DNA of 64,000 nt from Alphaproteobacteria bacterium. GTDB taxonomy: Bacteria > Pseudomonadota > Alphaproteobacteria > RF32 > CAG-239. Positions 2,629-50,135 of this stretch are shown here, in pieces (position 1 is the first letter of the stretch; each line of letters starts with the position of its first letter). The translations under genes were made by a program, and so were the position numbers. Where the stretch lies: positions 7,960 through 71,959 of the forward strand of contig JBKEEF010000004.1 of the NCBI GenBank assembly GCA_047975765.1, written 5' to 3'. The notes under the pieces are model-generated. The model saw only the letters and a program-made list of their open reading frames with translations. It ran no database searches and was not told where the DNA came from.

Positions 2629-3045
2629 TTAGATTTTGAAAAGAGGATTTTTCAATCCTGCCGGAAGCTCATCTCTTGAAAAGTTATATTTTTCCGTGTC
2701 GGCTGGATGAATTAAGTTTTCATCTTTTGAGAGAAAAAATTTGGCTCCTTTCACGAGTTTGTCATCAATAATTTTTCCGAGGCACATGTGAGAGACAGGA
2801 GAAAGAAAAATCTCTTTGCCAATGCAAGGAAATTTCTCTAAGTCGACAAGTCTGTGTAAGTAAAAAGGAGGATTGATAGAATAAATCAAAATTTTCTCAC
2901 CTTCACTTTCAGCTTTCAACATGGCGTCATATAATTCTTCATTAAATTCACCGCTGAAGCTTAAAAGAGTTCCCATAACATTTACCAAAGAATAATCAAT
3001 GATAACAATGTCTTCGTCTTCTTTCAAAATTTTTTTGTAGTCCAT
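2629..3045 (-). CDS. Orphan protein, possibly a degenerate HAD-like fold; SD-less leader
   Basis: ORF starting MDYKK after promoter TTGAAA-N17-TAAAAT; NVMGTLL / KILIYS / IIDD loosely echo HAD motifs. Confidence 0.55.
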   Translation of the reverse strand: MDYKKILKEDEDIVIIDYSLVNVMGTLLSFSGEFNEELYDAMLKAESEGEKILIYSINPPFYLHRLVDLEKFPCIGKEIFLSPVSHMCLGKIIDDKLVKGAKFFLSKDENLIHPADTEKYNFSRDELPAGLKNPLFKI

Positions 3046-3223
3046 AGGAATAATAAAATTAAAAATTAAAAAAATAATATTTTGCTCTTTCATTTTAACA
3101 TCTGGAATTTTGAGTTTCAAGCAGATTAAAATGAAGGATTTGTTTCAGAATAACTTTTCTTTTGTTGTTGTATAAGTTTCTTAATCTCGCTATGATGTCA
3201 GACATAAGTTTTTAAGGAAAACA

Positions 3224-6200
3224 ATGTCAGAACCTAAATTTGTACATCTTCGCGTTCATAGTGCCTATTCATTGTCTGAAGGAGCAATGAAGATTAAGTC
3301 TTTATTGCCAAAGGCGAAAGCTTTGGGTTATTCAGCCCTCGCAATTACAGATACGGCAAATATGTTTGGAGCAAAAGAATTTTCCTCAGTAGCTTCAAAA
3401 GAAGGTGTTAAGCCTCTCTTAGGTTGCCAATTCAATCTCAGAAATGCGGATGCTGATGACCCTTTCAAATCCAAAGGAATGGTCGTTGAGCCTGATAAAA
3501 TTGTTCTTTTGGTACAAAATCAAGAGGGCTATCAAAATATTATGCATTTGATGAAAGTGTCTTATTTGGATAATATGGGATATGCTGAAAAACCTCAGCT
3601 TTTGCTTTCAGATTTAGAAACATATGGCAAAGGGCTTATCTTTTTGAGTGGTGGCTTCGAAGGTCCTATTGGCAGATTGTATCTTGATAATCGTGCTCAA
3701 GAGGCAGAAGAACTTGCTGTTAAATTCAAAGAGATTTTCGATAATAGATTTTATATGGAAATTTCTCGTGTGGGTTATGAGAATGAGAAAAAAACAGAAG
3801 ATTTCTTTCTTGATATTGCCTATAAGTATAATATTCCTTTAGTGGCAACAAACGAAGCTTTTTTCTTCACTGCTGAAATGTATGAAGCTCATGATGCTCT
3901 TGTGTGTATTGCACAAGGTGAATATGTTGCCAATGATAATCGTAAAAAGTTTTCTCCAAATAATCGTTTGCGTTTTCCAGAAGAAATGGTGGACTTATTC
4001 AGAGATTTGCCAGAAGCAGTTCAAAACACTGTTGCAATTGCAAAACGTTGTAGTTTTATGTCTGAATTTGTTTCTCCACTTCTACCTCACTTTGATTGTG
4101 GTGAGATGTCAGCAGATGATTTTATCCGTGAAGAATCACTAAAAGGTTTAGCACAAAGGATGAAAGATCATGTTTATAAAGAAGACATGACGGACGAAGA
4201 AAAAAAAGCTAAAGACGATGTTTATTATGCACGTTTGGATTATGAGCTTGGTGTGATTAAAGGAATGGGGTTTGCTGGATACTTTCTCATCGTGTCAGAC
4301 TTCATTCGTTGGTCAAAAAATAATGGCGTTCCTGTTGGTCCGGGACGTGGTTCTGGTGCAGGTTCTATTGTGGCTTGGTCGCTTGAAATTACCAACTTAG
4401 ATCCAATTCACTATGATTTGCTCTTCGAAAGATTTCTAAATCCAGATCGTATTTCCATGCCGGACTTTGACGTTGACTTTTGCCAAGAAAAACGTGAAAA
4501 AACCATAGAATATGTAAAAAATAAATATGGTGCTGAAAATGTGGCACAAATTATTACTTATGGTAAATTGCAGTCGAAGGCTGTTATTCGAGATGTAGCC
4601 CGTGTTTTACAGATGCCTTATTCTCAGGCTGACAAAATAAGTAAAATGATTCCTGCTGGGAATCAGGGAAAAAATCCAACTTTACCAGAAGCATTAGAAC
4701 AAGTTCCTGAGCTTGAAGAAATGCGTGTCAATGACCCTCAAATCAATAAGCTTTTTGATATTGCGATGAAATTAGAAGGGCTTTATCGTCATTCAGGGGT
4801 TCATGCTGCAGGTGTGGTGATTGGTGACAGGTCTTTAGAACAACTTGTACCACTTTATAAAGATCCTCGTGCTGAAATGCCAGTAACTCAATTTGATATG
4901 AAGTTTGTGGAAGAATCTGGTTTGATTAAGTTCGACTTCTTAGGCTTGAAAACCTTAACTGTTATCAAAAAGGCTTTGGAGTTAGTCAAAAAAAATTATA
5001 ATGTTGATATAGATATAGATAAAATCCCTATCGATGATAAGGCTTCTTATGAACTTTTACAAAGAGGGGATACTTCTGCTGTGTTCCAATTTGAATCGGC
5101 AGGCATGAAAGATGTTCATAAGCAAATCAGACCAGATAGATTTGAAGACCTTATTGCGATTGTGTCTTTGTATCGTCCTGGTCCAATGGATAATATTCCA
5201 AGCTATATTAAGAGAAAACATGGTGAAGAAAAAGTTGAATATCTTCATCCGATGTTAGAATCTATTCTTTCTGAAACATATGGTATTATGATTTATCAAG
5301 AGCAGGTGATGAGAATTTCTCAAAAACTTGCGAATTATACCCAAGGTGAAGCAGATACACTTCGTAAGATTATGGGTAAGAAGATGATGGATAAAATGCC
5401 AGCTCAAAAAGACAAATTTGTTCAAGGATCAGTGCAAAATGGAATTGCCCAAGATGTTGCAGAAACGATTTTTGAACAAATGGCAAAATTTGCTTCTTAT
5501 GGGTTTAACAAATCTCATGCGGCAGCATATTCACTTATTTCATATCAAACTGCTTATTTGAAAGCCCATTATCCAGTTGAGTTTATGTGTGCAGTGATGA
5601 GTTTGGATATTACGAATACAGATAAACTACTTTTCTTCAAAGATGAAGTGAAGCAAATGGGGATTCCTGTTTTGACACCAAATATCAATAAGTCAGGTGT
5701 GGAATTTACGGTTGAAGGAAAAAGTATTCGCTATGCACTTGCTGCTATCAAAGGCGTTGGTGAGGCAAGTATGAGAGCAATTGTTGAAGAACGTGAAAAA
5801 AATGGTGTTTATAAGGATATTTCGGATTTTATCCATCGAACAGATTTCAAACAAATCAATCGACGTCAACTTGAACAATTGGCAAAATCTGGTGCTTTTG
5901 ATGATTTAGAAAAAAACAGAGCTAAACTTTTTGAAAATACTGAAACAATTATTAGACATATCTATGCAGCAACTGAAGTCAAAACAAGTGCTCAAACAAC
6001 TTTGTTTGGAAGTGTTGAGCTTCAAACTGAAGTGAAGTTGGAAGATAAACCAGAATGGCCAGAATTAGAAAAACTTAGAAATGAGGCAGAGGCAATTGGT
6101 TTTTATCTTTCTGCTCATCCTTTAGATATTTATGGTAAAGGTATGGAAAGATTGAGCGTCAAAAAAAGCAGTCAGGTTTTTGGAAATGTTAAAGTTGGAG

Positions 6201-6694
6201 ATACCATCAAGGCAAAGCTTGCAGGTTGTGTGAATAGCTTTAAGAAAAGATTGAGTAAAAATGGAAATAAATATGCTTTTCTTGAAATGTCTGATTTGGA
6301 AGGAAAGTTTGAGGGATTGATGTTTTCAGAAGCAATTGCAAGATACGAAGAAATTATAAATTCGGGTCTTCCTTTGTTGGTTAGTATGACAGTTGACCGC
6401 CAAACAGAAGAGGGAAGTCCTCGAGTACTGATTAATATCGTGGAAACGCTGGATAAAGCAATTGCAGATGTTGCCACAGGTTTTAATGTTTTTGTATCTA
6501 GCCAAAGTGCTATTAGAGAATTAAAAGAAATTCTGGCTCAGGATAAAAAAGGCAGAAATAAGATATATATTATACCTGATGATAAAAATTGGGATGTGAG
6601 AATTGAACTACCATATGGCTATGCTTTTGAAAATAGCGATGCCTTGACTAAAATTAGAAGTATTCACGGTGTAACCTCTGTTCAGGAGATATAA
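3224..6694 (+). CDS. dnaE: DNA polymerase III alpha subunit
   Basis: PHP domain FVHLRVHSAYSL, GPGRGSGAGS, SMPDFDVDF, GFNKSHAAAY; 1156 aa. Confidence 0.98.
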   Translation: MSEPKFVHLRVHSAYSLSEGAMKIKSLLPKAKALGYSALAITDTANMFGAKEFSSVASKEGVKPLLGCQFNLRNADADDPFKSKGMVVEPDKIVLLVQNQEGYQNIMHLMKVSYLDNMGYAEKPQLLLSDLETYGKGLIFLSGGFEGPIGRLYLDNRAQEAEELAVKFKEIFDNRFYMEISRVGYENEKKTEDFFLDIAYKYNIPLVATNEAFFFTAEMYEAHDALVCIAQGEYVANDNRKKFSPNNRLRFPEEMVDLFRDLPEAVQNTVAIAKRCSFMSEFVSPLLPHFDCGEMSADDFIREESLKGLAQRMKDHVYKEDMTDEEKKAKDDVYYARLDYELGVIKGMGFAGYFLIVSDFIRWSKNNGVPVGPGRGSGAGSIVAWSLEITNLDPIHYDLLFERFLNPDRISMPDFDVDFCQEKREKTIEYVKNKYGAENVAQIITYGKLQSKAVIRDVARVLQMPYSQADKISKMIPAGNQGKNPTLPEALEQVPELEEMRVNDPQINKLFDIAMKLEGLYRHSGVHAAGVVIGDRSLEQLVPLYKDPRAEMPVTQFDMKFVEESGLIKFDFLGLKTLTVIKKALELVKKNYNVDIDIDKIPIDDKASYELLQRGDTSAVFQFESAGMKDVHKQIRPDRFEDLIAIVSLYRPGPMDNIPSYIKRKHGEEKVEYLHPMLESILSETYGIMIYQEQVMRISQKLANYTQGEADTLRKIMGKKMMDKMPAQKDKFVQGSVQNGIAQDVAETIFEQMAKFASYGFNKSHAAAYSLISYQTAYLKAHYPVEFMCAVMSLDITNTDKLLFFKDEVKQMGIPVLTPNINKSGVEFTVEGKSIRYALAAIKGVGEASMRAIVEEREKNGVYKDISDFIHRTDFKQINRRQLEQLAKSGAFDDLEKNRAKLFENTETIIRHIYAATEVKTSAQTTLFGSVELQTEVKLEDKPEWPELEKLRNEAEAIGFYLSAHPLDIYGKGMERLSVKKSSQVFGNVKVGDTIKAKLAGCVNSFKKRLSKNGNKYAFLEMSDLEGKFEGLMFSEAIARYEEIINSGLPLLVSMTVDRQTEEGSPRVLINIVETLDKAIADVATGFNVFVSSQSAIRELKEILAQDKKGRNKIYIIPDDKNWDVRIELPYGYAFENSDALTKIRSIHGVTSVQEI

Positions 6695-6696
6695 AA

Positions 6697-7530
6697 ATGA
6701 GTGATTTTATTAAAAGAGTGATAGGTGAAAAAGATGATTTCACGGTGGAAAATGTGAAGATGCCATTCTTTGGATTGATATTTTCACCTTTTAATTATTT
6801 CATAGATAACCTAAAAGGATTCTTTCTTTCCGCAGCGATTTATTCTGTCGTTCTTACGATCGCGGCTTGTGCACTTGGAACATTTTTTCTGTGTGGCGTT
6901 GAAGGGGCAAGAGAAAATATTTTTTGTTCAAGTTCCGATTTAAGTAGTATATCTTATTTGGCTATCAAAGGTTTCATCATGCTTTTGTTCTGCATCTTCT
7001 TTTATGAATTGCTTTCAAAAAGGGCATTTTCTTGGAAGAATTTATTCGTTTTAAATCATAGAATGTTTAAACTTTTTATAGCTTTTTTTGTTGCATTTTT
7101 ATTGATATTGCTTCCAATAATTTCTTTTTATACCCTTTATGTTAGAGAGCCTAATCCGGATTGGCTTATTGAGATTTCATTCTTCGCATTTGTTTCAATT
7201 GGTTTCTTTTCTCCATTTTTGATTTTGAGATTTTTCTCAGTTTTTGGTTTGATTGTTGAAGAAAGAGAAATTCCTTCTTTGATTGCACTTTGGCGTCGTT
7301 CAGCTGATAATATGTTCAAAATCATTACATCAATCTTTTTTATTATGGCATTTCTTTTGGTTTTGGTTATGAATTTTTATTATAATTTTGTGGGCTATAC
7401 AGCGGAAAATTTTGCTGTCGTTTTGCTCATTGAATTTTTTTATAATATTATTTTCTTTCTCCTTGTTTCCTTGTTTGTTGGGCATGTGAAAGCACAGACA
7501 TTTTATTTGTTTGGAGAAATTGAAGACTAA
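6697..7530 (+). CDS. Polytopic membrane protein, unknown function
   Basis: 277-aa ORF directly after dnaE with about six hydrophobic segments. Confidence 0.75.
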   Translation: MSDFIKRVIGEKDDFTVENVKMPFFGLIFSPFNYFIDNLKGFFLSAAIYSVVLTIAACALGTFFLCGVEGARENIFCSSSDLSSISYLAIKGFIMLLFCIFFYELLSKRAFSWKNLFVLNHRMFKLFIAFFVAFLLILLPIISFYTLYVREPNPDWLIEISFFAFVSIGFFSPFLILRFFSVFGLIVEEREIPSLIALWRRSADNMFKIITSIFFIMAFLLVLVMNFYYNFVGYTAENFAVVLLIEFFYNIIFFLLVSLFVGHVKAQTFYLFGEIED

Positions 7531-7531
7531 T

Positions 7532-7561
7532 AAAAAAAGCACCGAAAACGGTGCTTTTTTT
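7532..7561. terminator. Bidirectional intrinsic terminator
   Basis: A7-GCACCG-AAAA-CGGTGC-T7. Confidence 0.85.
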
Positions 7562-7568
7562 ATTTTAT

Positions 7569-9647: not shown

Positions 9648-9741
9648 AAAACTTACACCTTTGTTAACAAATAAAATATAATTTTATACTATATATGATA
9701 GATATTAAAAAAAGAATAAACAAACAAGGAGAACTTTAGTT

Positions 9742-16025: not shown

Positions 16026-18086
16026 ATGTCAGATGTAAGTTCAGATACCAAAGTTTTAGATTTTGAGAAAGTTCCTTTTGAAAACATCTTGAAAAGAGAT
16101 GGAACTCTTTCTCCATTCGATAGTCATAGAATTTTTAATGCCATTCTCAGAGCTGGAACTTCCACATCTGAATTTGCAGAACAAGAAGCATGGTTGTTGA
16201 CGGCTCAAGTTTTAAAAGTTTTAAAGCACAAATTTGCTGAAACTTTACCAACGATTGAACAAGTTCAAGATGTTGTTGAACAAGTTATCATCTCTGCGAA
16301 TCACTTTTTAACAGCTAAGGCGTATATCTTATATCGTGATCAAAGAAGCAGAACGAGAAGTGATCGCAAAGTGATGGTTGATGTTGAAAGTTCAATTAAT
16401 GAATATTTAGAAAGATTAGATTGGCGTGTGAATGCAAATGCGAATCAGGGCTATTCAAATGGTGGTTTGATTTTGAATGTTTCTGGTAAGGTCACTGCAA
16501 ATTACTGGCTCAGCCATGTTTATCCTGCGGAAATTGGTGAAGCTCACAGAAATGGTGATATGCATATTCACGATTTGGATATGTTGGCAGCCTATTGTGC
16601 TGGCTGGTCTTTGAAAAATTTGCTTCACGAAGGATTTAATGGTGTTTCAGGAAAGGCTGAAGCTGGTCCAGCAAAGCATCTTTCTGCGGCAGTTGGTCAA
16701 ATGGTCAATTTTATGGGAACGCTTCAAAATGAATGGGCAGGGGCACAAGCTTTTTCTTCTGTGGATACCTATCTTGCACCATATGTCCGTAGAGACAATC
16801 TTTCTTACGACCAAGTTTTGCAACAAATTCAGGAACTCATTTATAACTTGAACATTCCTTCTCGTTGGGGTTCTCAAACACCTTTCACAAACTTCACATT
16901 TGACTGGGTTTGCCCAGAAGATTTATGTGATAAACACCCAATTATTGCGGGAGAAGAACAATCTTTCACTTATGGTGATTTAAAACCTGAAATGGATATG
17001 ATTAATAAGTCCTATATCACAGTGATGATGGGGGGAGATATTAAGGGACGTCCATTTACATTCCCAATCCCAACTTATAATATGACGCCAGATTTTCCTT
17101 GGGAAGATGAAAATACAGAACTTCTTTTTGAAATGACCGCAAAATATGGTTTGCCATATTTCCAAAACTTTATAAATTCTGTTTTGAAACCTGGTCAAAT
17201 TCGTTCAATGTGTTGTCGTTTGCAACTTGATTTGCGAGAACTTTTGGCGAGAGGAAATGGTTTGTTTGGTTCTGCTGAACAAACAGGTTCTGTTGGGGTT
17301 GTCACTTTTAACTGCGCAAGACTAGGCTTTGTATATAAGGGCAATGAGGCTGGACTTTTTGGTCGTGTTGATGAGTTGATGCAAATTGCTAAAACAAGTT
17401 TGGAAATCAAAAGAAAAGTCATTACACGCTTGATTGATAATGGTCTTTTCCCATATACAAAACGTTATTTAGGAACTTTACGCAACCACTTCTCAACAAT
17501 TGGTGTGAATGGTATTAACGAAATGATTTTGAACTACACAGATGGCAAATATGACATTGCTTCCGCTTATGGTCAACAATTTGCTGAAAAGTTCTTAGAT
17601 TATATCCGTGCAAAGATGGTTAAAATTCAAGAAGACACGGGACATATGTATAATCTTGAAGCAACTCCTGCCGAAAGTGCAACATATCGTTTTGCACGTG
17701 AAGACAAGAAAAGATTTAATGGAATTATCCAAGCGGGAACGCAAGAGAATCCATACTATACAAATTCTTCTCAACTTCCTGTCGGCTACACAGATGATCC
17801 ATTTGAGGCTTTAGATTTGCAATCTACTTTGCAATCCAAATATACGGGTGGAACGGTGCTTCACCTTTATATGAGCCAAAGACTATCTTCTGCAAAAGTT
17901 TGTCGTGACCTCGTCAAAAGGGTGCTCACAAACTATCGCCTGCCATATGTGACAATTACACCAACATTTTCTGTGTGTCCAAAACATGGATATTTGTCTG
18001 GTGAACATAAATATTGTCCAATTTGTGACGAAGAGAAAAAAGCTGAAAAATTGAGAGTTTTAGAAAACAAAAAAGAGATTGCATAA
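16026..18086 (+). CDS. nrdD: Class III anaerobic ribonucleoside-triphosphate reductase large subunit with ATP-cone, lacking the C-terminal glycyl-radical loop
   Basis: ILKRDG ATP-cone, HIHDLD, QNEWAGAQA, RSMCCRL, EATPAES, YTGGT, CPKH...CPIC; no R-x-x-GY motif before the stop. Confidence 0.95.
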   Translation: MSDVSSDTKVLDFEKVPFENILKRDGTLSPFDSHRIFNAILRAGTSTSEFAEQEAWLLTAQVLKVLKHKFAETLPTIEQVQDVVEQVIISANHFLTAKAYILYRDQRSRTRSDRKVMVDVESSINEYLERLDWRVNANANQGYSNGGLILNVSGKVTANYWLSHVYPAEIGEAHRNGDMHIHDLDMLAAYCAGWSLKNLLHEGFNGVSGKAEAGPAKHLSAAVGQMVNFMGTLQNEWAGAQAFSSVDTYLAPYVRRDNLSYDQVLQQIQELIYNLNIPSRWGSQTPFTNFTFDWVCPEDLCDKHPIIAGEEQSFTYGDLKPEMDMINKSYITVMMGGDIKGRPFTFPIPTYNMTPDFPWEDENTELLFEMTAKYGLPYFQNFINSVLKPGQIRSMCCRLQLDLRELLARGNGLFGSAEQTGSVGVVTFNCARLGFVYKGNEAGLFGRVDELMQIAKTSLEIKRKVITRLIDNGLFPYTKRYLGTLRNHFSTIGVNGINEMILNYTDGKYDIASAYGQQFAEKFLDYIRAKMVKIQEDTGHMYNLEATPAESATYRFAREDKKRFNGIIQAGTQENPYYTNSSQLPVGYTDDPFEALDLQSTLQSKYTGGTVLHLYMSQRLSSAKVCRDLVKRVLTNYRLPYVTITPTFSVCPKHGYLSGEHKYCPICDEEKKAEKLRVLENKKEIA

Positions 18087-26400: not shown

Positions 26401-26476
26401 GGTCCCATCGTCTAGAGGCCTAGGACACGTCCCTTTCACGGATGAGACACGAGTTCGAATCTCGTTGGGATCACCA
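26401..26476 (+). tRNA. tRNA-Glu(UUC)
   Basis: Acceptor GGTCCCA/TGGGATC, anticodon arm CGTCC-CTTTCAC-GGATG, T arm ACGAG-TTCGAAT-CTCGT, encoded CCA; promoter TTGACC-N17-TATACA upstream. Confidence 0.97.
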
Positions 26477-26477
26477 T

Positions 26478-26518
26478 TAAAATAAAAATACGCCTTTATG
26501 GCGTTATTTTTATTTTAA
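26478..26518 (+). terminator. Hairpin after the tRNA
   Basis: AAAATAAAAATACGCC-TTTA-TGGCGTTATTTTTATTTT. Confidence 0.65.
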
Positions 26519-26533
26519 AAGTAATTTTAGTTT

Positions 26534-26764
26534 GATTAGAACTCGAGGAAAGAGTTCGACTACCAGCGGGAGGCAGACGAAAGTATGCCGGTGAGACCGA
26601 GCGTTGGTCGCGAGGGCGAATGAGCGCCAGTAGCAACTCGACTGAAAGGAGAGTAATCTCGTTGTCGTTGTGTAGCAACGAATGATTTATCCGGCACCCT
26701 TTTATGGGTGTTTTTGTTATTGGAAGTTTAACAGGATTTGAACTCGTGTCTCACGAGTTTGAAA
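26534..26764. repeat. tRNA-linked structured element containing fragments of the tRNA-Glu T-arm
   Basis: GC-rich island with several hairpins; antisense T-arm copies at 26534-26545 and 26735-26753 (18/19), sense fragment AATCTCGTTG at 26655-26664. Confidence 0.6.
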
Positions 26765-27197
26765 TAGGATTAATAAGCAAAATAGCCTCCTCATTTGAGA
26801 AGGCTATAAATTTTTTTGAAAGCTTATAGATTATTAAAAATAAATTTTTTGGCTGTTGGGGCATCAAAAATATCATATGTTGTATTTTCCCAGACATAAT
26901 AGTTATCAATTGGGATTGCATCTCCGCCGAAACGTTTTGCCAAAGCTTTTGCGGTGTCACGGTTGCCAATATATAGGCAAGGATGAATGTCTGTCTCATG
27001 AGAAACAAAAATTTTGGTTTTTTAACTCCAAGAATTGAACAGGAACTACTAATATAGCCAATTAAGAGTGCTGCTTCTTGCATGAGATCTAGCGGATTGC
27101 TCTTTTCTCTCAAATCTGGTCTTATCAGGAAAATGATGCTTTTTTCTTCATTCACTGATGAGAACAATCTTTCTAAAAGTTTAAATAAAGTTTCCAT
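26751..27197 (-). CDS. Orphan protein; SD-less conserved leader
   Basis: 148-aa ORF with promoter TTGCAA-N16-TATAGT; its stop codon lies inside the tRNA-like hairpin. Confidence 0.55.
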   Translation of the reverse strand: METLFKLLERLFSSVNEEKSIIFLIRPDLREKSNPLDLMQEAALLIGYISSSCSILGVKKPKFLFLMRQTFILAYILATVTPQKLWQNVSAEMQSQLITIMSGKIQHMIFLMPQQPKNLFLIIYKLSKKFIAFSNEEAILLINPISNS

Positions 27198-27291
27198 AAA
27201 ATGATATTTTAGTAATTAGTAAATAATTTGATTTGAAATCTACTATACATAGTTTTTTTTGCTTTGCAATAAAATTCAATACGTTAAATGT

Positions 27292-27334: not shown

Positions 27335-27736
27335 TTATAATCCGAGTTCTTTCAGAGAATAAACATAGAGAACATTTTCTATCTCTCTGAAAGGAGCGCA
27401 TTCAATGATGGATTCATCTTGATTGTTCCAACTCGTACAAAGACCTCTTCCGCCAATTTTATGTCTGAGCCAAAAAGATTGACTGCTGACAACATAAAGG
27501 CTTTCATCGAGAGATTTGGTTTCAAGAATTTGATTGAACTCATCTACAGATAGAAGGCGCTTTTCTGGATTGTTATTTTCCATTGCGCTATGCCAGTCAG
27601 TGCTTGTTTCAATTTCAATGGAACAGGCGAGATTTTTTTCAGCATCAAAGATAATAGCAATAGTGTGTTCATTTTCACGATTTTCACTGATGTAATATTT
27701 GCCATCTTTAAAATTTAGGAAATTTCCAATTTTCAT
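27335..27736 (-). CDS. Orphan protein, possible C-type-lectin (DUF1566-like) fold; SD-less conserved leader
   Basis: DWHSAM...RLLSVDEF...FW pattern resembles the CLec-fold W..A...RLP...EL...YW motif. Confidence 0.55.
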   Translation of the reverse strand: MKIGNFLNFKDGKYYISENRENEHTIAIIFDAEKNLACSIEIETSTDWHSAMENNNPEKRLLSVDEFNQILETKSLDESLYVVSSQSFWLRHKIGGRGLCTSWNNQDESIIECAPFREIENVLYVYSLKELGL

Positions 27737-27913
27737 AATGATATTTTTTAAGAGATTAATAATTTGATTTGAAGTTTGACCATAACATGTTTAGACAAAA
27801 AAACAAGATACTTTTGTTGTTGGTTATAGAAAGTTAGGTTTTGATGTGTTATTATTTGATAATCTGGAATTTGGGATATTTTTTAGAAAACAATTCTTAA
27901 AAAGGTGTGTTCA

Positions 27914-28466: not shown

Positions 28467-28730
28467 CTAGCGTTTGTACCTAGGTGCACGAAAACGTGAT
28501 GTCCATGAGTACCAGATGATGCTTATAATAAAACCCGCTACAGCAGTGACTATCCACAAAGGAATCTCTGTTTCGGTTAGCCATTTGGTTAAAAGTCCAT
28601 ATCTTGCAAGCGCAGCAGTTGAATCTGTGTCAAATGAGGCTTGTGCATACAATCCGGATAAAGCTCCAAACAATGGAAATAGAATAAACATGCCCTTTCC
28701 GTAAATTAAAGCAAATAAAGATTTTTTCAT
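28467..28730 (-). CDS. Small two-TM orphan protein; SD-less leader
   Basis: 87 aa, two hydrophobic segments, basic tail. Confidence 0.65.
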   Translation of the reverse strand: MKKSLFALIYGKGMFILFPLFGALSGLYAQASFDTDSTAALARYGLLTKWLTETEIPLWIVTAVAGFIISIIWYSWTSRFRAPRYKR

Positions 28731-28768
28731 AAAATTAAAATTTAGAGATTAATAATTAATATAATTTT

Positions 28769-29302
28769 TTATACATTAAGCTGTTCAAACAAATGTGAAA
28801 TTTTGTCTCTAGCATATGTTTCAAATTCTTCAAACAAAGAGGAAAATTTGCTGTTTGATTGATAATGTGTTACTTGCCGATGTTTGTCATAATAAGCGGC
28901 TTGTACGACTGCTTCCAATTTATCGAGTTGTTTAACAAATTTTGCTTCTTCAGTTTTTTGTTTTTCAAATTCAATAAAAAGTCCAATCAGTTCCGGTTTT
29001 TGAAGTTTATAAGAAATTTCTTTAACTGCCACCAATTCAGCTTCGTATTTTTCTTTCTCGGAAATATTCTCGTCAGGCGTATGGTCACCAGTGATGATTT
29101 CCACAATATCGTGTATGATAGCCATTTCCAAACAACGAAGTTTGTTTAGGTGAGAAGGACAAAGAAGAATTACTAACATAGCAACACCCCAAGAGTGACT
29201 TGGAATATTTTCAGGATTTTCAATGTTTCTTTTAACCCAACCGCTTCGTTTTAAATCTTTTGCAAGACCAAGAATCTCTGAAATTTCATCAAATTTTTTC
29301 AT
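28769..29302 (-). CDS. HD-domain phosphohydrolase (YfbR/HDDC2-like 5'-deoxynucleotidase)
   Basis: KRSGW, ENIPSHSW, IIHDIVE, GDHTP, EAKFVKQLDKLE. Confidence 0.9.
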   Translation of the reverse strand: MKKFDEISEILGLAKDLKRSGWVKRNIENPENIPSHSWGVAMLVILLCPSHLNKLRCLEMAIIHDIVEIITGDHTPDENISEKEKYEAELVAVKEISYKLQKPELIGLFIEFEKQKTEEAKFVKQLDKLEAVVQAAYYDKHRQVTHYQSNSKFSSLFEEFETYARDKISHLFEQLNV

Positions 29303-29460
29303 AAGGTTTATAATGATTGAGTGTTAATAATTTCATTTTCATTATTTTTTTAACACATTTAGACAAAAAAGTAAATAGAGATTAAAATTTTTTTATCTCT
29401 ATTTAATAAATTGTTTGGTATCTTATCTATTTAAGTGCATGTTAATTTATGGAGAAAGAT

Positions 29461-30685: not shown

Positions 30686-32555
30686 TTAGCTTTGGAAGAG
30701 TTTTAATACAGATTGCGCCGCTTGAGATGCTAAAGAAAGAGCATTGATATTAAGTTTCTGTCTGGTTTGTAGCGCGAGAATGTTTGCAGATTCTTCGTTC
30801 ATATCAGCAAGTGTCAGCTCATCCGCGCCGTCTTCTAGCACAACAATCAAGTTTTCTGTGAAGTTTTCTCGGTTTGAGATAATGCCATAATAACTACTTA
30901 AGCCTTCAGAGATTGTGCGAAGCTTTTTAATTGCTGCATCAATGTTGCTGATTGTTTGTTCTGTGTTTTTAGGGAAAATCCAGTCAACTTCTTCTAATCC
31001 AATTCCTCGAGATGTGGCATCTGTTCCTTTGACTTCAATTTTGGAAGAATTTTTTTCATTGAATTGAACGGATAGATTTTGATTGAGGAGTAAATTGACC
31101 CCCTTGTAACTTCCATCAGAAATGAGCATATCATATTGTCTTAGCAACTCATTGTATTGTTTTGAAAATTGGGGTGAAATCACATAGTCATTCGTGATTG
31201 AAAATTCATGCTTCTCTATTTCTTCCATAAGTTTTTCATATGTTATAGTTTGAAGAAGATGCTGCACTAATACCATCTAAATTATCAGTGTTTGCTGTGA
31301 TGTTTATTGCGCTATTTGTGTTATAAACTTTATAGTTATAAGCAGTTGTACTATTTTTGAAACCAATTATGACACCTGATTGAACGTTAATTGATGAGGC
31401 TTCAAGTGCTGTCCAGTCACTGTTAATCATGACTTTGCTTCCTGAAAGGATATCTAAGCCTCCTCTAATGCCTCTTGAAAAAGCACCCGTTGTCTCGATG
31501 TTGATATTTCCTTTGAGACTACCACTATTGACGAAATCAATACCATGAGAAAGAGCTCCTTTTGTTTTAATGTTAATTGTCCCTTGAGAGAATACATTTC
31601 CAAATCTCAGTGCTGAAGATGATGCTCCGTTGGTTTCTATATTTACAATAGCATCTGCAGTTATGTTTAAAGTAGGATGACTGTAATATCCATTATGGTA
31701 AACTCCTTGAATAGAGCCTCCTTTAGATTTGATGTTTATTATACCGCTCAGTTCAAGAGAAGAATTTGTTTTGTTAGCAATAGCTCCAATGTAGTTTAAT
31801 TGGTTATTTGTACGATTACTTGTTAATTCAACACTAACATTATGAAGTTTGACGCCTGTTTTGTTATTGACATATACGGTTGCTATGTCATCACCGGTAT
31901 ATTCAGTTTTCATAGAGACACTTAAATTTTCAAGTGTTGAGTTATTTCCCATAATGACACCACTTTTATACTGTGTTCCCATATCAAAATTTATAGATGA
32001 GGCATTGCTAGCATCAAAGTCTGAGCTGTAGCCATTTTCTTCGAGATATGTTTGAATTCCTGCTAGTTTGACTCCATTTTTAATAGTTAATGAATCATCT
32101 CCCATGTCAATGTTTCCAAATAGATAAATTGTATCACCAGAGTTTGCGGAAGCAAGTTTGGAGATAAGGGATGCTTTGTCTGTAGCAATATGTTGCATAT
32201 TGATTTCGTTATCTGTAAACCATTTTTCAGTAATTTGAGTTTTATCAATTGTACTTTGAAGAGATGCAGTTGCAATAGATTTCATTTGTTGCAAAATTTT
32301 GCTACCGCTTTCAAGGGTTTTAGAGGAAGTTTCAATTGTTTTAGAACCTTGTTCCATGGCATCGAGAAGCTCTGATAAATCTGAAGCCCGATTATTTAGG
32401 TTTGCTGCTGTAAAATAAGCTGAAGGATTACTTATAGCCGTGGAAACTTTTAGTCCTGTTGAAAGTTTGTTTTGAGTAATAGAAAATAAGTCTGTTGTTT
32501 TCTTATTTGCCAACAGATTATTGCGCATTGCCGATGTCAAAACGATATTACTTAT
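30686..32555 (-). pseudogene. Flagellin (alphaproteobacterial type) with a large beta-rich insert; ATA at the start position and a frameshift near 31236-31276
   Basis: N-term (I)SNIVLTSAMRNNLL...QNKLSTGLKV...NRASDL; C-term DGSYKGVNLL...LADMNEESANILALQTRQKL...QAAQSVLKLF in another frame; AAGGAG precedes ATA at 32555. Confidence 0.8.
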
Positions 32556-32778
32556 CTAGTTCTCCTTAGTTCCTTGTTATAATAATATTTTATTCTATTA
32601 TAAGTATAGCATATTTTCATAAAAATAAAGCATAGTTATGAGTTTTGAGATGCTTTTGTATTGGTTTAAAAAATAATCTCAAAAATAATTACTTCTTTAT
32701 ATGTTGACAAATAAAAAATAGAATATATATTGAAAAGTTCGAAACAAATTATTATTAACTTATTAAAACATTAAATTT

Positions 32779-32934
32779 ATGACAAACAAAACGTTCAGTA
32801 GAATTGTATGTGGTTTTTTTGTTGTCTTGTTTCTTCTTGCTTGGATAATAGCATTTAGTGGGAATAAAACAAGCTTAACATCTAATAAAGTGAGCAATTT
32901 TTCTGCAGAAAATGATTTAGTTCATCGTCCTTGA
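32779..32934 (+). CDS. Small single-TM protein (51 aa), below the ORF-track cutoff; SD-less conserved leader
   Basis: MTNKTFSRIVCGFFVVLFLLAWIIAFSGNKTSLTSNKVSNFSAENDLVHRP; promoter TTGACA-N16-TATATT upstream, terminator downstream. Confidence 0.7.
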   Translation: MTNKTFSRIVCGFFVVLFLLAWIIAFSGNKTSLTSNKVSNFSAENDLVHRP

Positions 32935-32958: not shown

Positions 32959-32990
32959 ACTTTGAATCCTTTCGGATTCAAAGTTTTTTT
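32959..32990 (+). terminator. Intrinsic terminator
   Basis: ACTTTGAATCC-TTTC-GGATTCAAAGT followed by a T run. Confidence 0.85.
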
Positions 32991-40228: not shown

Positions 40229-40260
40229 TTTTCTTCCTTTCTTTTTTCAAGTTTAATAAG

Positions 40261-40289: not shown

Positions 40290-40362
40290 GAGATATATTG
40301 CTTTTCTTGTTTGATTATTGTATGTTGTCGCAAGTTATTAATTATTATAAAATTTTTGTGGT

Positions 40363-40827
40363 ATGGGATTTGAACGAAACGTTTTTAATTCGGATTCAAG
40401 TATTAATGTTTTACCATATGATTGGACAGACATTAAAGACATTCTTAGAAAAGCGGACATCAGAACACTAGGTGAGTATATGGCTTTGGGTGAAGAAGGT
40501 TTGCGTAAAAGAAAAGTGAAACTTGGAATTATTAAGATGAAAAAAATTTCAGATTATCTTGAAGAAGAAGGTATGGATTTTTCTTCTTTTTATATTTCAA
40601 AATCTGAAACAGTTTCTCTTAGTGATAGCGTTTATGCTTTGTCCAAAAATTCAAATTATGGAATTAGGGTGAAGAATACGCTTTATGATAGTGGCGTAAA
40701 AACAATTGGCGATTTCCTTCAAAAAGGAGGAAAAGTTTTATTGGAAAAAAGGGTTGCCACTGAAAAGACATTGTCAAAAATGTTTCAAGAAGTTCATGAA
40801 AGATTAGAAAAAGAGGAAGTTTGTTAA
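40363..40827 (+). CDS. Orphan protein with two RNA polymerase alpha-CTD-like repeats
   Basis: ILRKADIRTLGEYMALGEEGL..KLG..KMKKISDYL and IRVKNTLYDSGVKTIGDFL resemble the alpha-CTD pattern R..N.L...GI.T.GDL. Confidence 0.6.
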   Translation: MGFERNVFNSDSSINVLPYDWTDIKDILRKADIRTLGEYMALGEEGLRKRKVKLGIIKMKKISDYLEEEGMDFSSFYISKSETVSLSDSVYALSKNSNYGIRVKNTLYDSGVKTIGDFLQKGGKVLLEKRVATEKTLSKMFQEVHERLEKEEVC

Positions 40828-40843
40828 AACTTCCTCTTTTTCT
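40806..40843. terminator. Bidirectional terminator overlapping the orphan stop codon
   Basis: AGAAAAAGAGGAAGTTT-GTTA-AAACTTCCTCTTTTTCT. Confidence 0.85.
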
Positions 40844-40858
40844 TTGGGAAAAAAATTA

Positions 40859-42172: not shown

Positions 42173-42175
42173 TTT

Positions 42176-42913: not shown

Positions 42914-42915
42914 TT

Positions 42916-43722: not shown

Positions 43723-44120
43723 AAACGAAGCTCCTTTTCGTCAAAAGCAAGAGGGAGAAAATCTGAAATTTTGAGAGATTTTTGAATGCCAGAATGGTTG
43801 GCAAGATGAATGATTGTTTCTTCATCTGAAAATTCTTTAATTCTTTGCAAACAAGCTCCGCACGGTGAAATGAGGCTGTTGCTATCAGCAATGATTAGAA
43901 TTTCTAAAATTTTACTTCCACCATTTGCAATCATTTCCGAAATAACACCAGCTTCAGCACACGTTCCACAAGGAAAAGATACATTTTCGACATTACAAGA
44001 AGCATAGTATTCTTGATTGTTGGCATAAATGGCAGCTCCAACTTTGAACTTTGAATAAGGTGAATAGGCGTTTTTTCTAGCATTTTCGGCCAAATTAAAC
44101 AATTTTTCCGCGATTTTCAT
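43719..44120 (-). CDS. cdd: Cytidine deaminase (homotetrameric)
   Basis: AYSPYSKFKVGAA, NVEN, CAE, PCGAC. Confidence 0.95.
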   Translation of the reverse strand: MKIAEKLFNLAENARKNAYSPYSKFKVGAAIYANNQEYYASCNVENVSFPCGTCAEAGVISEMIANGGSKILEILIIADSNSLISPCGACLQRIKEFSDEETIIHLANHSGIQKSLKISDFLPLAFDEKELRL

Positions 44121-44229
44121 AATTGCTTTTTTTCCTTAAAAGTTTTATTAATGAATTATGTTTTATAATATATTGATTAATATATGATTTAGCAAAGATT
44201 ATTTTGAGTCTTTACAAAGGAGAGAGAAC

Positions 44230-47200: not shown

Positions 47201-48462
47201 ATGTTGGCGTTGGCGTTGTGGCAAATGGAGATATTGGTTTGTGGGACATGAAAACAAACTATGTCGCAGATTATTTTAATACAAAATCAAAATTCAAACT
47301 CAATTATAGTTTGTCTGGTCCAATTTCGACACCAAGTTTGTTTGTTGATGCTACAAATATTGCTGCTATCTATGACAATAAAAACAGGCAAATTGCAGAA
47401 GAACAAAAGGAAAAAGCAAAACGCAGAAGTGAGAATTTGATTTTTGAAGTAGATAAAGAAAGAGAAAGAAGTGCTATTCTTAATCGTAAGATTGATGAGA
47501 AAATTCGTTTTATTATGGGACGTTTAGAATCGGTCACAAATGAAACAGTTAAACAAGAATATTCTCAGATTATGCACTCTCTACAAGTTCAAGAATCTGA
47601 AATCGCGGGAATGCTTGGTGAAACCCAAAATCCGCAAAATCTGGATTTGAATGAAGACTATATAAAAAATATGAACCGCAAAAATGATAATTATGAAAAA
47701 ACAGTTTCTGATCTTTTGGTGGGGGTTGATGGAATTTATTATAGAGATATTAAAGAGGCTCTAAATTCCAAATATAACTCACTTGCTGATAAGTATGGTC
47801 GCAGTCGTCAGAATGTTGTGAAGTATCGTGATGAATTTGTAAAATATCCCGTAAGAATGGCAGTAATGGGTAAAGTTTTTGTTTTGGATAATGATGCAAA
47901 AATCACCGAACTTAAATCTAAAATTGAAAGCGGTTTTTCAGCAATGGATAATATTAACACAGAGGCAAGTCAGGAATATATTGTTGCTCAAGCTTTGAAC
48001 AATCTAGATGAAATTAAGGCTTATGATGCTCAAGTTGATCGCTCATTGGTGGAAGTTGATGCTCGTGCAAAAGAAATTGACGAAACAATTGTTGAGCTAA
48101 ACGAATATACAGAGGCACTCGTGACAGCTCAAGAAGAAGCTTATGATGCTCAAGTTAAAGATACAGAAGTTAAAAATAAACTTGATGCAAACAAAGGGTC
48201 GATTTCTGCAAATGGAAAAGTGACAACTTTAGTCCGCGATATCAGCGAAATAAAAAAGTCTGAAGAGGCTGTTGCTGGAGAGGGTGTGAAGGTTCTTGAT
48301 TTCTCTAAAATTGACTCTAAGGTTGAGGAGGTGAAACCTGCTCAAAAAGTCATTTCTAGAGAAGAGGTTAATAGAATTATCACAGAAAAAACAGAAGGTA
48401 TTTTGAGCAAAAAAGAGGGCTCTGAAAAATCTTCTGTTAGTGGTGTTATTATCAAGAAATAA
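44230..48462 (+). CDS. AsmA-family protein with C-terminal coiled-coil region
   Basis: N-terminal TM, DWN..K..I...TG...GPVSF..FPSP AsmA start, G.T.F motif, helical tail; 1410 aa. Confidence 0.8.
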   Translation: MKKVILAVIGALVIGAASFFLYVSMIDWNLHKDKIANQFSNVTGKKVVFSGPVSFNVFPSPYLTASNVKIYNDSADMSAPPLATINELVAELSLFPLLHGNFDVKKMFLREPEMFVEVLPEGKINWQSNLPVNYDAPKERIEVALDSVMIEKAKLNIVSKELGLNLSFDNLNAEIIADSIFGPYRIEGSYINDNNPEGFALSLGQFSESFATSLNFVIRHPKSDSYLRFDGSFFLKNSAVNGSVVVESARLTDFVNSYFPRFTFDKKYEFPLAMSMEVNTNRTKIDVSNFVVKYGGTAGAGNILIPLKADEFNTNDSETVERKKVEVAFNMTDLDLNPFIMAINDSYKDSKDYKLDLGYDILFDLKSVKTVYKDQNIRDFVLSFDLLDKSLNLHSLGGIFPGETTLTTQGNIFSKDEKLSYNFDITANSLDFLKLSSWLGYNLPAVNNTTYRNFEISTGVSGNNEVTKIAPLKVKVDKTNFSGEMGIVWGDRPNIYANMDIDAINFDNYFEKIPDEVSAKGWGETFKYAASKLGIINDYEIKFDTNLLLGIYNSVPFENTEIAFSADKGVVNLEKLNITSVKNSTMDFTGTLQGFGTSNPSFSNIKYNVSTQDFYSLFSNDNLPTFMKQANDFKKFEAKGIITGNFDKYVTKTVFKLDDINAVYSGEVSKINNEQAFNGKLDLRTPDFVKFVNKFGVNYAPTALSMGVLRIGTNISGSDKKFSLKDMELFIGPNTFKGSLDYSKVEDKNNISFDLAINRFELDRFFYNKGAQANSGAKFSVENAAGADFLTKPFWDKTAYDYTPFQKYTINGKVAVETLTYGSEDISGATFALSLDNQLLRIQNLSGKYHNGAITSALIELGMFGSTYIKGDINLANSTLDSKYFSGLKYGLLSGSLNMNAVFNTAATSFFDMMTNLTGEIKFNISNPVLKGWDLDEIEIDLEKRTVSEGLTAFLQANLQTGKTEFDDFSGRVTFNMAAFQFFETKFSKDNVGVGVVANGDIGLWDMKTNYVADYFNTKSKFKLNYSLSGPISTPSLFVDATNIAAIYDNKNRQIAEEQKEKAKRRSENLIFEVDKERERSAILNRKIDEKIRFIMGRLESVTNETVKQEYSQIMHSLQVQESEIAGMLGETQNPQNLDLNEDYIKNMNRKNDNYEKTVSDLLVGVDGIYYRDIKEALNSKYNSLADKYGRSRQNVVKYRDEFVKYPVRMAVMGKVFVLDNDAKITELKSKIESGFSAMDNINTEASQEYIVAQALNNLDEIKAYDAQVDRSLVEVDARAKEIDETIVELNEYTEALVTAQEEAYDAQVKDTEVKNKLDANKGSISANGKVTTLVRDISEIKKSEEAVAGEGVKVLDFSKIDSKVEEVKPAQKVISREEVNRIITEKTEGILSKKEGSEKSSVSGVIIKK

Positions 48463-48533
48463 CTCTTGAGAATAAATCCTTTTATGATATAAGACTTCTA
48501 TAACAATTGTATTATTAATAGGAGTTTTATATC

Positions 48534-49427
48534 ATGAAAAAGAGACCAGAGGTTTGCATTCTTCCTGTTGCCGGACTTTCTACTAGAAATCTTCCGTCTA
48601 CCAAAGCTCTCCACAAAGGTTTTTTAACACTTAACAGCAAACCAATAATTCAATATGCGGTTGATGCTTGTGCCGAAATTGGCGTCAAAGAAATTGTGTT
48701 CATTTATAGTGACCAATCTTGTAAACATCTTTTTGAAACTCACTATTCCAAAAATGAATGGTTGGAAGAACATCTTCTCGAAAAAAATAAATTAGATATC
48801 TTAAAAACATTGCGTGAAATTGTCCCTGAAGGTATGAAGTTTTCTTTTGCTGAGCAAAAAGAACCAAAAGGAAATGGTCATGCTGTTTTAATGGCGAAAG
48901 AAATTGTTGGGGATAGAGATTTTATCGTGATGTGGCCAGATGATGTTTATGTGGCTAAAAAAGGTTCTGAAGGTATTTTGAAACAACTTCTTCATGTTTA
49001 TGATGAGTTTGGTGGTGTTGTTCAAAATACTGGTGTGTTTCCTGATAGTGAAATTGTTCGTTATGGTGTTTTAGAAGGTGCAAGAAGAGAAGGTAATATC
49101 ATTCATGCGAATGGTTTGATTGAAAAGCCGGCTGCTGATAAAATTCCATCAAACTTTGGCGTGTTGGGACCATACTTGTTGCCAAATGAAATTATGAAAA
49201 TTTTGCCTGAAGTTTCTAAAGGAACAAATGGAGAAATCAATCTTGCAGATGCTATTGGTTTAGCTGCCAAACGTGGTATGAAAATGACAGGTGTTATTTG
49301 TGATGCAATGCGCATGGATTGTGGTACAAATGAGGAACTTGCAAAGGCAAATATTAAGTTGTCTCTCATTCAGAATGAAGATTTGCGTCATTATGCAAAA
49401 GAACTTTTGAAAGAGTTAGAAGCGTAA
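48534..49427 (+). CDS. galU: UTP--glucose-1-phosphate uridylyltransferase
   Basis: PVAGLSTRNLPSTK, QKEPKGNGHAV, IEKP, GEINLADAI, DCG. Confidence 0.85.
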   Translation: MKKRPEVCILPVAGLSTRNLPSTKALHKGFLTLNSKPIIQYAVDACAEIGVKEIVFIYSDQSCKHLFETHYSKNEWLEEHLLEKNKLDILKTLREIVPEGMKFSFAEQKEPKGNGHAVLMAKEIVGDRDFIVMWPDDVYVAKKGSEGILKQLLHVYDEFGGVVQNTGVFPDSEIVRYGVLEGARREGNIIHANGLIEKPAADKIPSNFGVLGPYLLPNEIMKILPEVSKGTNGEINLADAIGLAAKRGMKMTGVICDAMRMDCGTNEELAKANIKLSLIQNEDLRHYAKELLKELEA

Positions 49428-49429
49428 TT

Positions 49430-49738
49430 ATGTTTCAAGTCGTTTTAACAACAGCCAAAGATAAAATTGAAGCTGAAGTTATTGCTAAGACTTTATTGGA
49501 AGAAAAGTTGTGTGCTTGCATACAACTTTTTCCAATTTCAAGTTACTATCATTGGGAAGGTAAATTTGAAAATTCGTCAGAGCTTTTGCTTTTGATAAAA
49601 ACTAGAAAAGAGTTGTATTCTGAAGTCGAGAAACGAATTTTGGAACTTCATTCTTATGATGTTCCTGAAATTATCTCTTTACCAATTGAAAATGGTTTTT
49701 CTGGTTATTTAGATTGGATTAAAAAAGAAACAAAATAA
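49430..49738 (+). CDS. cutA: Divalent-cation tolerance protein CutA
   Basis: LCACIQ, SYYHWEG, LLIKT, HSYDVPEII, YLDWI. Confidence 0.93.
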   Translation: MFQVVLTTAKDKIEAEVIAKTLLEEKLCACIQLFPISSYYHWEGKFENSSELLLLIKTRKELYSEVEKRILELHSYDVPEIISLPIENGFSGYLDWIKKETK

Positions 49739-49769
49739 AAAGGTTTGTTCTAATGAACAAACCTTTTTT
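49737..49769. terminator. Bidirectional intrinsic terminator
   Basis: AAAAAGGTTTGTTC-TAAT-GAACAAACC-T6. Confidence 0.85.
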
Positions 49770-49784
49770 GTAATCTGCGAGAAA

Positions 49785-50057
49785 TTACGCGATTTTTTTG
49801 TGCTTTTTATGAGTTTGGTATGAATAACCATTTTTTATCCTCATTTGATTGGCAGCAGTTTTGTTCTTTTGGAACATAGCTTGCGTAAAACTGGATTTTG
49901 TTTTCCTAACTCCCATAGCTTTTCTAATTTTTTTAATAGATTATCTTTTTTGAGAGCGAAATATTCGTTTTCCCTGATTGATGATTTTTTTATCTCCAAT
50001 TGTTTTTGGAACAGGGATCGTTGTCGCTTTTCTTTGAGGAATGAAAAAATTTCTCAT
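49785..50057 (-). pseudogene. Lys/Arg-rich 90-codon orphan with one internal TAA; SD-less conserved leader
   Basis: MRNFFIPQRKATTIPVPKTIGDKKIINQGKRIFRSQKR*SIKKIRKAMGVRKTKSSFTQAMFQKNKTAANQMRIKNGYSYQTHKKHKKIA*; promoter TTGATT-N17-TATAAA. Confidence 0.5.
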
Positions 50058-50135
50058 AACATTTTAATTTTAATAATTAGTAATAAATAATTGAGTTGAA
50101 CATCCTTTATAATATATATGGACAAAAAAATCAAC

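Follow-up and report, generated by a model that had tools for sequence, protein, structure and literature searches.

A Shine-Dalgarno-less promoter and leader module shared by orphan genes in a family of gut and rumen Alphaproteobacteria

The stretch analyzed here, a 64-kb window of contig JBKEEF010000004.1 (assembly GCA_047975765.1, Alphaproteobacteria), is part of a 1.81-Mb genome with 34% GC in 23 contigs. Eight open reading frames (ORFs) of the window had originally been predicted to belong to a dispersed class of orphan genes sharing a promoter and a leader without a Shine-Dalgarno (SD) sequence. Genome-wide analysis confirmed this observation and showed that the class is larger than had been described. 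A short box, named AAATTATTAAT in DNA and AAAUUAUUAAU in RNA, precedes 104 genes of the genome, 86 of which lack an SD (about 5% of genes). Judged by these upstream regions, the orphan genes appear to be subject to another mode of initiation or control than the core genes.

Genes were called with a purpose-written hexamer-based finder, which gave 1894 genes and 89% coding DNA; 1874 genes had enough upstream sequence for SD scoring. A gene was considered SD-less when it had no SD 4-mer at -18 to -4. Promoters and transcription starts were inferred throughout from consensus matches. The genome uses the standard genetic code, and an alternative code was rejected, giving no gain in long ORFs. Products encoded in the window include DnaE, NrdD, LysS, TolB, AsmA, and flagellin. 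In public genomes, LysS was matched best by proteins of metagenome-assembled genomes of uncultured 'Alphaproteobacteria bacterium' from gut and rumen, some of them labeled as uncultured Azospirillum or Rhodospirillaceae. The organism probably belongs to the GTDB order RF32. The earlier claim that core genes use GGAG or AAGG was borne out: upstream of the genes there was a sharp GGAG/AGGA/AAGG peak at -14 to -10, and a strong SD 4-mer was present in 1141 of the 1874 genes and absent from 733. De novo expectation-maximization (EM) analysis of 988 leading genes gave AAGGAG at about 62% occupancy, and EM over all leading genes together recovered only the SD and T runs.

EM analysis of the last 60 nt before 442 SD-less leading genes revealed AAATTATTAATt as the most informative motif. 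The sequence AATTATTA was found in the last 50 nt of 49 of 733 SD-less genes, compared with 10 of 1141 SD genes. A scan matrix of 14 nt, used at a threshold of at least 8 bits, matched 79 of the 442 SD-less leading genes in the sense direction and 9 in the antisense direction, with 20.2 matches in dinucleotide shuffles (about fourfold excess). Among SD-bearing leading genes, 13 of 546 had matches against 13.4 in shuffles. Split-half cross-validation gave 54 sense and 9 antisense matches in 442 genes, and the association of the box with SD-less leading genes was strong (Fisher p = 1e-17). The motif enrichment on which the original prediction depended was thereby found, the box being strand-specific, above shuffles, and tied to SD-less and Pfam-less genes. 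Because of these scan, shuffle, and cross-validation results, and because all eight window sites scored 7.9–12.4 bits with the genome-wide matrix, the outcomes named beforehand as fatal to the prediction do not occur: the motif is neither as frequent in shuffled DNA nor as common before core genes, and it is a genome-wide class, not a feature of the adjacent pair 27197/27736 only. Composition, chance, and local duplication are excluded as causes.

The proteins encoded behind the box had been described as unrelated to each other, and only 7 paralogous pairs were detected among the 104 class genes. The class genes were shorter than average (median 174 aa); their GC and GC at third codon positions (GC3) were those of the genome, with a somewhat lower coding score. 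The 86 SD-less members were compared with 86 length-matched SD-bearing leading genes from the same 20-kb tiles. A Pfam family was assigned to 18 of the 86 class genes and 65 of the 86 controls (p = 6e-13), leaving 68 and 21 Pfam-less genes, respectively. The class products were a mix of small membrane, secreted, and cytoplasmic proteins. A terminator-like hairpin and T run followed the stop codon in 49/86 class genes (24/86 controls), and an operon-like downstream gene was present in 15/86 (33/86 controls). The class genes were moderately clustered, with 11 adjacent pairs against 4.4 expected. Homologues in 400 kb of a same-genus genome were found for 7 of 86 class genes and 221 of 1141 SD genes (p = 0.009).

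The leaders had been called nearly G-free, and their G content was indeed 5%, compared with 17% in SD genes, with C unchanged (9%) and an A+T content of 86%. Mean folding energy was -4.2 for the class leaders, -5.35 for their own shuffles, and -6.2 for SD genes. In the ATG-aligned class genes, A occurred at -13, -12, and -11 with frequencies of.64,.73, and.67, followed by a T-rich stretch at -10 to -7. A reached.55 at -6 and.47 at -3, the enrichment at -3 being weak, and T at -2 and -1 reached.65 and.74 (.36 and.37 in SD genes). The second codon was A-rich. The matrix start of the box lay 24–35 nt before the ATG. ATTATT was present at least twice in 32 of 86 leaders (6.05 in shuffles), with copies mostly 11–13 nt apart. 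The start codon was preceded directly by ATT, as ATT-ATG, in 20 or 21 of 86 class genes and in 36 of 529 SD genes, and ATTAT stood exactly at -3 of the ATG in 20 of 86.

Two simple explanations of the start region were rejected. The box showed no frame preference relative to the ATG (32/30/24), which argues against an upstream ATT as an in-frame start, and the best predicted promoters ended 30–48 nt upstream of the ATG, which argues against leaderless mRNAs. The initiator tRNA of this genome has the usual anticodon loop CUCAUAA. In Flavobacterium, A at -14 to -11, -6, and -3 favors SD-less initiation, and bS1 has been proposed as the reader (PMC6847099). Pairing of A37 of the initiator tRNA with U at -1 has been described (PMC10018350). 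The ATG-phased signals of the class match both the SD-less initiation of Flavobacterium and the U-1/A37 pairing.

The module has a constant order: a sigma70-like promoter, the box, a G-poor SD-less leader, the A-rich positions -13 to -11, and TT before the ATG. The class promoters look like the housekeeping sigma70 type in sequence, and the genome contained 8 sigma70 region-2 matches. Among 48 class genes with a good TTGACA-17-TATAAT-like match, 27 had AATTATT 14–17 nt past the -10 hexamer. Of 86 genes, 19 had TAnnnT ending 13 nt before the box, 14 had it ending at 14 nt, and 10 at 15 nt, with about 4 at other offsets. The promoter-phased pattern TTGAC-N37-39-AATTATT occurred 22 times in the window genome, 2–5 times at most other gaps, and 2 times in the backwards control. 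With a transcription start assumed 7 nt after the -10 hexamer, the box would lie at about +9 to +18 of the mRNA.

A second element, TTTGTC[TCA]A, was present within 120 nt upstream of 22 of 67 class genes but only 14 of 447 SD genes. TTTGTCTA was about tenfold denser in intergenic than in coding DNA (63 intergenic and 45 coding copies). In the window genome TTTGTC lay mostly within the promoter spacer or further upstream; in genus g3 it directly adjoined the -10 hexamer (TTTGTC-TATnnT), and in another genus it came straight after TTGAC (TTGACTTTTGTCTAA). Its role could be that of an extended -10-like element or of a site bound by a factor.

A DNA operator is one rival reading: a family-specific repressor or silencer would bind AAATTATTAAT around +9 to +19, where direct repeats are often spaced by roughly one helical turn. 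Such a site just downstream of strong promoters would hold an accessory regulon off until a signal, and the SD-less leader would be a separate property. The fixed distance between the box and the -10 hexamer, which is kept across genera, is consistent with an operator, as are the 11–13 bp repeat spacing near the DNA helical repeat, the near-palindrome AATTA-T-TAATT, and the accompanying TTTGTC[TCA]A element. However, the strand specificity of 79 sense to 9 antisense matches is strong, and the central T, a position without consequence for a dyad, is kept at 94–96%. An RNA-level cause is needed for the ATG-phased features and for a leader that is poor in G, but not in C, along its entire length. 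The placement of ATTAT at -3 of the ATG in 20 genes also argues against an operator, which is considered rather unlikely.

The core of the box, (A/T)ATTAT, could also be re-read in the non-template strand as a -10 element by bound sigma, giving a sigma70-dependent promoter-proximal pause around +20 to +25 of the kind known from lambdoid late promoters. While paused, the polymerase could be loaded with a factor, or its transcription coupled to translation. Sigma-dependent pause sites fall in this range downstream of the start. In favor of this reading, A occupies the '-11' position of the core (.85) and T the '-7' position (.94), the true -10 is a constant 20 nt or so upstream of the core, and the core is strand-specific, as recognition of the non-template strand predicts. 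A pause is nevertheless judged very unlikely: all six core positions and the flanks are conserved at 85–96%, the core departs at two positions from the -10 hexamers of this genome, preferring T over their usual A at one and A over their T at '-12', and neither the additional copies downstream and at the ATG nor the SD-less G-poor leaders fit. Operator and pause stay as rivals because of the tight promoter phasing, the -10-like core, and the repeat of about one turn.

The distribution of the module was investigated in a family set of the window genome and 120 other family genomes; related genomes in this set are not independent samples. Plain counts of box k-mers in whole genomes (16 vs 12.8 expected) were uninformative because coding DNA dominates, and the promoter-phased pattern was therefore used. 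At least 10 matches to this pattern, a threshold for which genomes were counted by hand from tables, were reached in 56 of the 120 other genomes, and the backwards control never exceeded 7. Eight genomes of four genera (g3, g6, g15, and g31) had 22, 21, 22, 22, 23, 21, 23, and 20 matches. Across five genera, a gap of 37–39 gave 22, 23, 21, 22, and 21 matches (total 109), compared with 5, 5, 7, 4, and 4 (25) at a gap of 47–49 and 5, 4, 3, 1, and 3 (16) at a gap of 27–29. On this sequence evidence, the module is a conserved feature of the family, with the same phasing across most genera.

Each of 31 distinct modules from five other genera was followed by a G-poor leader and an ORF starting with ATG. 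In these modules, A was found at -13, -12, and -11 in 24, 24, and 22 cases, at -6 in 21/31, and at -3 in 15/31; T was found at -1 in 26/31, G made up 3.4%, and no SD 4-mer occurred (0/31). Only 4 of the 31 products had a Pfam match. In a 49% GC genome of another genus, the box preceded 9 of 95 SD-less leading genes (1.6 in shuffles) and 1 of 151 SD genes, and the box genes were again orphans. Two gene families within one genus (protein identities 56–61% and 29–43%) kept the -35, the -10, the box, and the T-rich start context, and the upstream region outside these functional blocks diverged.

The module was not present everywhere. Genus g10 was poor in the promoter-phased pattern (0–5 matches), and in the same-genus genome G001 (39% GC) no box was found before 84 SD-less leading genes in 400 kb. 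The module was not found in 149 other alphaproteobacterial families, represented by one genome each; in a hand count, 2 of the 149 reached 10 pattern matches, and these did not resemble promoter modules. Keyword literature searches returned no description of the box or of an SD-less orphan-gene leader in these bacteria.

The original prediction had also considered genes from one SD-less donor pool. Such genes, coming from Bacteroidota, phages, or plasmids, would have kept the start signals of the donor. The ATG-phased A tract resembles the Bacteroidia start context, the clustering of 11 adjacent pairs is in keeping with such an origin, and the nearest Atlas clusters of one protein are phage-associated, which is a lead only. 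This idea was not supported. GC, GC3, and coding score of the box genes were native in the window genome and in five other genera, and in the 49% GC genome the box genes had that genome's own GC and GC3. A PHROG search matched none of the 68 Pfam-less class proteins; PHROG matches were obtained for 9 of the 86 class proteins, each of which also had a Pfam family. Viral contigs scanned with two class proteins contained no relatives. The promoters are of host sigma70 type with the box phased to them, and a few housekeeping genes carry the module here and have orthologues with an SD. In the window genome, a DAHP_synth_1 family gene (L022:304-1176, contig C14) and an M16 peptidase gene (L006:304-1578) carried an SD-less box leader, and a few orthologues of class genes in the relatives G001 and G097 had an SD or no box. 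A resident gene can therefore exchange one leader type for the other, given the few conserved enzymes that carry the box here but whose orthologues carry an SD or lack the box. Foreign origin is accordingly given almost no credence.

Equally little credence is given to mobile promoter cassettes, that is, one promoter-leader segment copied before unrelated genes. The exact 16-mer TTCAAATCAAATTATT and 11-mer AAAATATCATT reported for 27197(-) and 27736(-) were both found, the internal spacing of the module is constant and its distance to the ATG variable, and promoter reuse is reported to occur (PMC3575422). However, in-register identity outside the box, over 86 modules and 3655 pairs, was 33.1%, compared with 32.1% out of register, and the best-matching module pairs shared consensus hexamers only, with the adjacent pair 27197/27736 as the sole exception. 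Orthologous modules diverged everywhere but in the functional blocks. The earlier description of the genes as self-contained cassettes therefore stands for their anatomy, with an own promoter, a terminator, and mostly monocistronic structure, but not for spread by copying.

The eight upstream strings of the window were all present on the strands and at the positions first given for them, and all ended in TATG. Boxes were scored with the matrix scan, ORFs were searched against Pfam, and the elements are as follows.

27753..27766, minus strand: leader box CAAATTATTAATCT of gene 27736 (12.4 bits)
27335..27736, minus strand: ORF of 133 aa, class member, no Pfam family
27779..27806, minus strand: predicted promoter of 27736, TTGTTT-16-TATGGT (consensus match only, predicted transcription start)
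27217..27230, minus strand: leader box CAAATTATTTACTA of ORF 27197 (10.4 bits)
26751..27197, minus strand: ORF of 148 aa, no Pfam family, missed by our gene finder
27242..27269, minus strand: predicted promoter of 27197, TTGCAA-16-TATAGT, with a 14-nt gap to AATTATT
32745..32761, plus strand: leader box AAATTATTATTAACTT of gene 32779 (9.9 bits)
32704..32731, plus strand: predicted promoter of 32779, TTGACA-16-TATATT (11/12 matches)
32779..32934, plus strand: hydrophobic ORF of 51 aa, no Pfam family, followed by a terminator at 32959-32990
50067..50092, minus strand: tandem pair of boxes, AATTATTTATTA and AATTATTAAAA, in the 50057 leader
49941..50057, minus strand: ORF of 38 aa, no Pfam family
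50121..50126, minus strand: promoter-associated element TTTGTC upstream of 50057
28746..28759, minus strand: leader box TTAATTATTAATCT of gene 28730 (10.4 bits)
28467..28730, minus strand: membrane-like ORF of 87 aa, no Pfam family
29321..29334, minus strand: leader box GAAATTATTAACAC of gene 29302 (10.3 bits), with TTTGTC at 29362-29367
28769..29302, minus strand: ORF of 177 aa, HD_3 / YfbR-like domain, class member with a family
40331..40344, plus strand: weaker box CAAGTTATTAATTA of gene 40363 (8.5 bits)
40363..40827, plus strand: ORF of 154 aa, sub-threshold match to the RNA polymerase alpha C-terminal domain (E = 8e-4)
3056..3069, minus strand: weakest box TTAATTTTTAATTT of ORF 3045 (7.9 bits, just below the 8-bit cut-off)
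2629..3045, minus strand: ORF of 138 aa, no Pfam family, missed by our gene finder

The sequence TTTTTTGTCYA, said to be common to three sites, was recognized in 27736, 29302, and 50057, which have TTTTTTGTCTA or TTTTTTGTCCA upstream. In the promoter of 27736, the -10 ends 15 nt before AATTATT, and TTTGTC at 27794-27799 lies within the spacer. Tandem box copies as at 50057 are typical of the class. The product of 29302 is the sole one of the eight with a firm Pfam family (HD_3), and its homologues in relatives had no box; the product of 40363 could be a small DNA-binding protein. A terminator downstream had been claimed for most of the sites. This agrees with the class as a whole (49/86), but in a strict test of the eight sites a terminator was found only after 32779; hairpins near 27197 and 27736 appeared in a separate scan. 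Since the terminator-like hairpin at 26782-26807 lies inside the 3' part of ORF 27197(-), the real product of this ORF may be shorter. Two further matrix matches were found in the window. The match at 57844(+), of 9.0 bits, precedes a 328-aa gene that has an SD and is probably a mixed case; the match at 16026(+), of 8.3 bits, precedes nrdD with only 2 nt of intergenic sequence and is probably due to chance.

Some side observations were made in the window. The nearest ESM Atlas clusters of the 27736 protein (feature score 0.96, TM value about 0.7) are hypothetical proteins, largely phage-associated or with an Lcl_C/DUF1566-like fold, and serve as a lead only. Between tRNA-Glu (26401-26476) and the orphan cluster there is a relatively GC-rich stretch of about 250 nt (26480-26750) with several hairpins followed by T runs; it matched no Rfam family above threshold and could be a small RNA or the edge of an island at the tRNA. 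The flagellin gene at 30686-32540 (minus strand) appears split into a 434-aa ORF (31236-32540) with Flagellin_N only and a 196-aa ORF (30686-31276) with Flagellin_C only. The two ORFs are in different frames and share about 40 nt; a frameshift in one gene, an error in the sequence, or the presence of two genes could account for this.

Of the three readings offered by the original prediction, donor pool, cassettes, and a regulon read by one RNA-binding factor or S1-type initiation, the last fits best: the box is strand-specific and anti-correlated with the SD. An RNA-level role is favored because the box is linked exclusively to SD-less genes, the depletion of G is strand-asymmetric, folding is low, and the signals are phased to the ATG. 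The module is thus read as a leader for SD-independent initiation or control of fast-evolving accessory genes, a reading to which an even chance is given.

In this favored mechanism, the class would be a family-wide set of small, fast-evolving, mostly single-gene accessory units sharing one expression module. A housekeeping-type sigma70 promoter, often with TTTGTC near or inside the spacer, would produce an mRNA with about 35–45 untranslated bases. The AAAUUAUUAAU box would lie about 8 bases from the predicted 5' end, with AUUAU(U) often repeated every 11–13 nt, and the last copy could overlap the start as AUU-AUG. The 30S subunits would start without SD pairing, using the openness of the A/U-rich leader in the manner of bS1-dependent or Bacteroidia-type initiation, and the initiator tRNA may contribute an extended pairing between its anticodon loop CAUAA and UUAUG. 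The box is a putative binding site for a reader specific for single-stranded A/U, either bS1 or a family-specific RNA-binding regulator, and this reader would set or gate the translation or stability of the whole class.

Several results weigh against this mechanism. The box is phased more tightly to the promoter (TAnnnT 13–15 nt before it in 43/86 genes) than to the ATG (spread of about 18–32 nt), which would suit a role at the level of DNA or RNA polymerase, and its core (A/T)ATTAT is itself -10-like. Two same-genus relatives are poor in the phased pattern, with 5 and 3 matches; as these relatives presumably share the ribosome but make hardly any use of the module, its distribution is not explained by bS1 alone. 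Pairing of the box with the 16S tail was rejected, the tail being canonical in 6 family genomes and containing no complement of the box. The 16S rRNA was not detected with the Rfam model in the window genome or five relatives; its 3' end was recovered with a short conserved pattern in 7 of 121 family genomes. The idea of a bS21 paralogue was also rejected: genomes rich and poor in the box both have bS21 in single copy, and of the 121 family genomes 112 gave one match, 2 gave two matches, and 7 gave none. The gene starts and SD classes rest on simple programs of our own, including a crude gene finder.

A stronger form of the RNA-level reading is put forward tentatively, as possible rather than probable. 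Here the module would be a dedicated second expression channel, in which a specific reader of the box, either an RNA-binding protein or a factor riding on RNA polymerase from about +9, licenses or gates the translation of SD-less mRNAs and keeps young lineage-specific genes in a separately controlled pool outside the core proteome driven by the SD. To enter this pool, a new gene would only need to gain the module.

Genomes are usually treated as having one mode of translation start. One genome, and with it a whole gut and rumen alphaproteobacterial family, seems to have two, and the split follows gene age and conservation, with the SD for core genes and the boxed SD-less leader for orphans of fast turnover. 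If the RNA-level reading is true, the module would provide a handle on the expression and control of new or accessory genes as a group. Gene finders could be given a concrete sequence rule for short orphan genes of these genomes and for where they start, and SD-independent initiation in Proteobacteria could be studied on a compact leader of about 40 nt. A role at the DNA level would define a regulon of about 100 promoters.

Comparison with known systems showed partial likenesses. CsrA/RsmA regulons read GGA sites, one of them over the start region. The box resembles these sites as a short motif on many unrelated mRNAs, often in 2–3 copies of which the last can overlap the start; however, it is A/U-only, replaces rather than overlaps the SD, and is phased to the promoter. 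Like the sigma70 pause elements of lambdoid PR'-type promoters, the box is -10-like, strand-specific, and at a fixed short distance downstream of the start, but it is conserved in a way unlike a -10 hexamer, recurs as far as the ATG, and is coupled to SD-less leaders. Phage morons are likewise single, unannotated genes of fast turnover with an own promoter and terminator; unlike them, the class genes are not in prophages, include no phage-family matches among the orphans, have native composition, and share one family-conserved leader. In Francisella, leader-selective ribosomes with bS21 paralogues are reported to form a specialized apparatus that reads one leader class (PMC12262407). This mechanism is unsupported here, as bS21 is encoded by one gene whether the genome is rich or poor in the box.

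The start regions described as bS1-dependent or Bacteroidia-type (Baez et al. 2019, PMC6847099) are alike in having no SD, A at about -14 to -11 and -6, low structure, and an A/U-rich sequence upstream of the start. Unlike in Bacteroidia, the SD-less mode here is a minority mode (about 5% of genes) and there is no organism-wide SD blindness: about 62% of leading genes carry AAGGAG, and the 16S rRNA has a free canonical anti-SD tail. The leaders here also differ in their sharply defined AAAUUAUUAAU box near the predicted 5' end and in UU at -2/-1, and the module marks orphan genes, not all genes.

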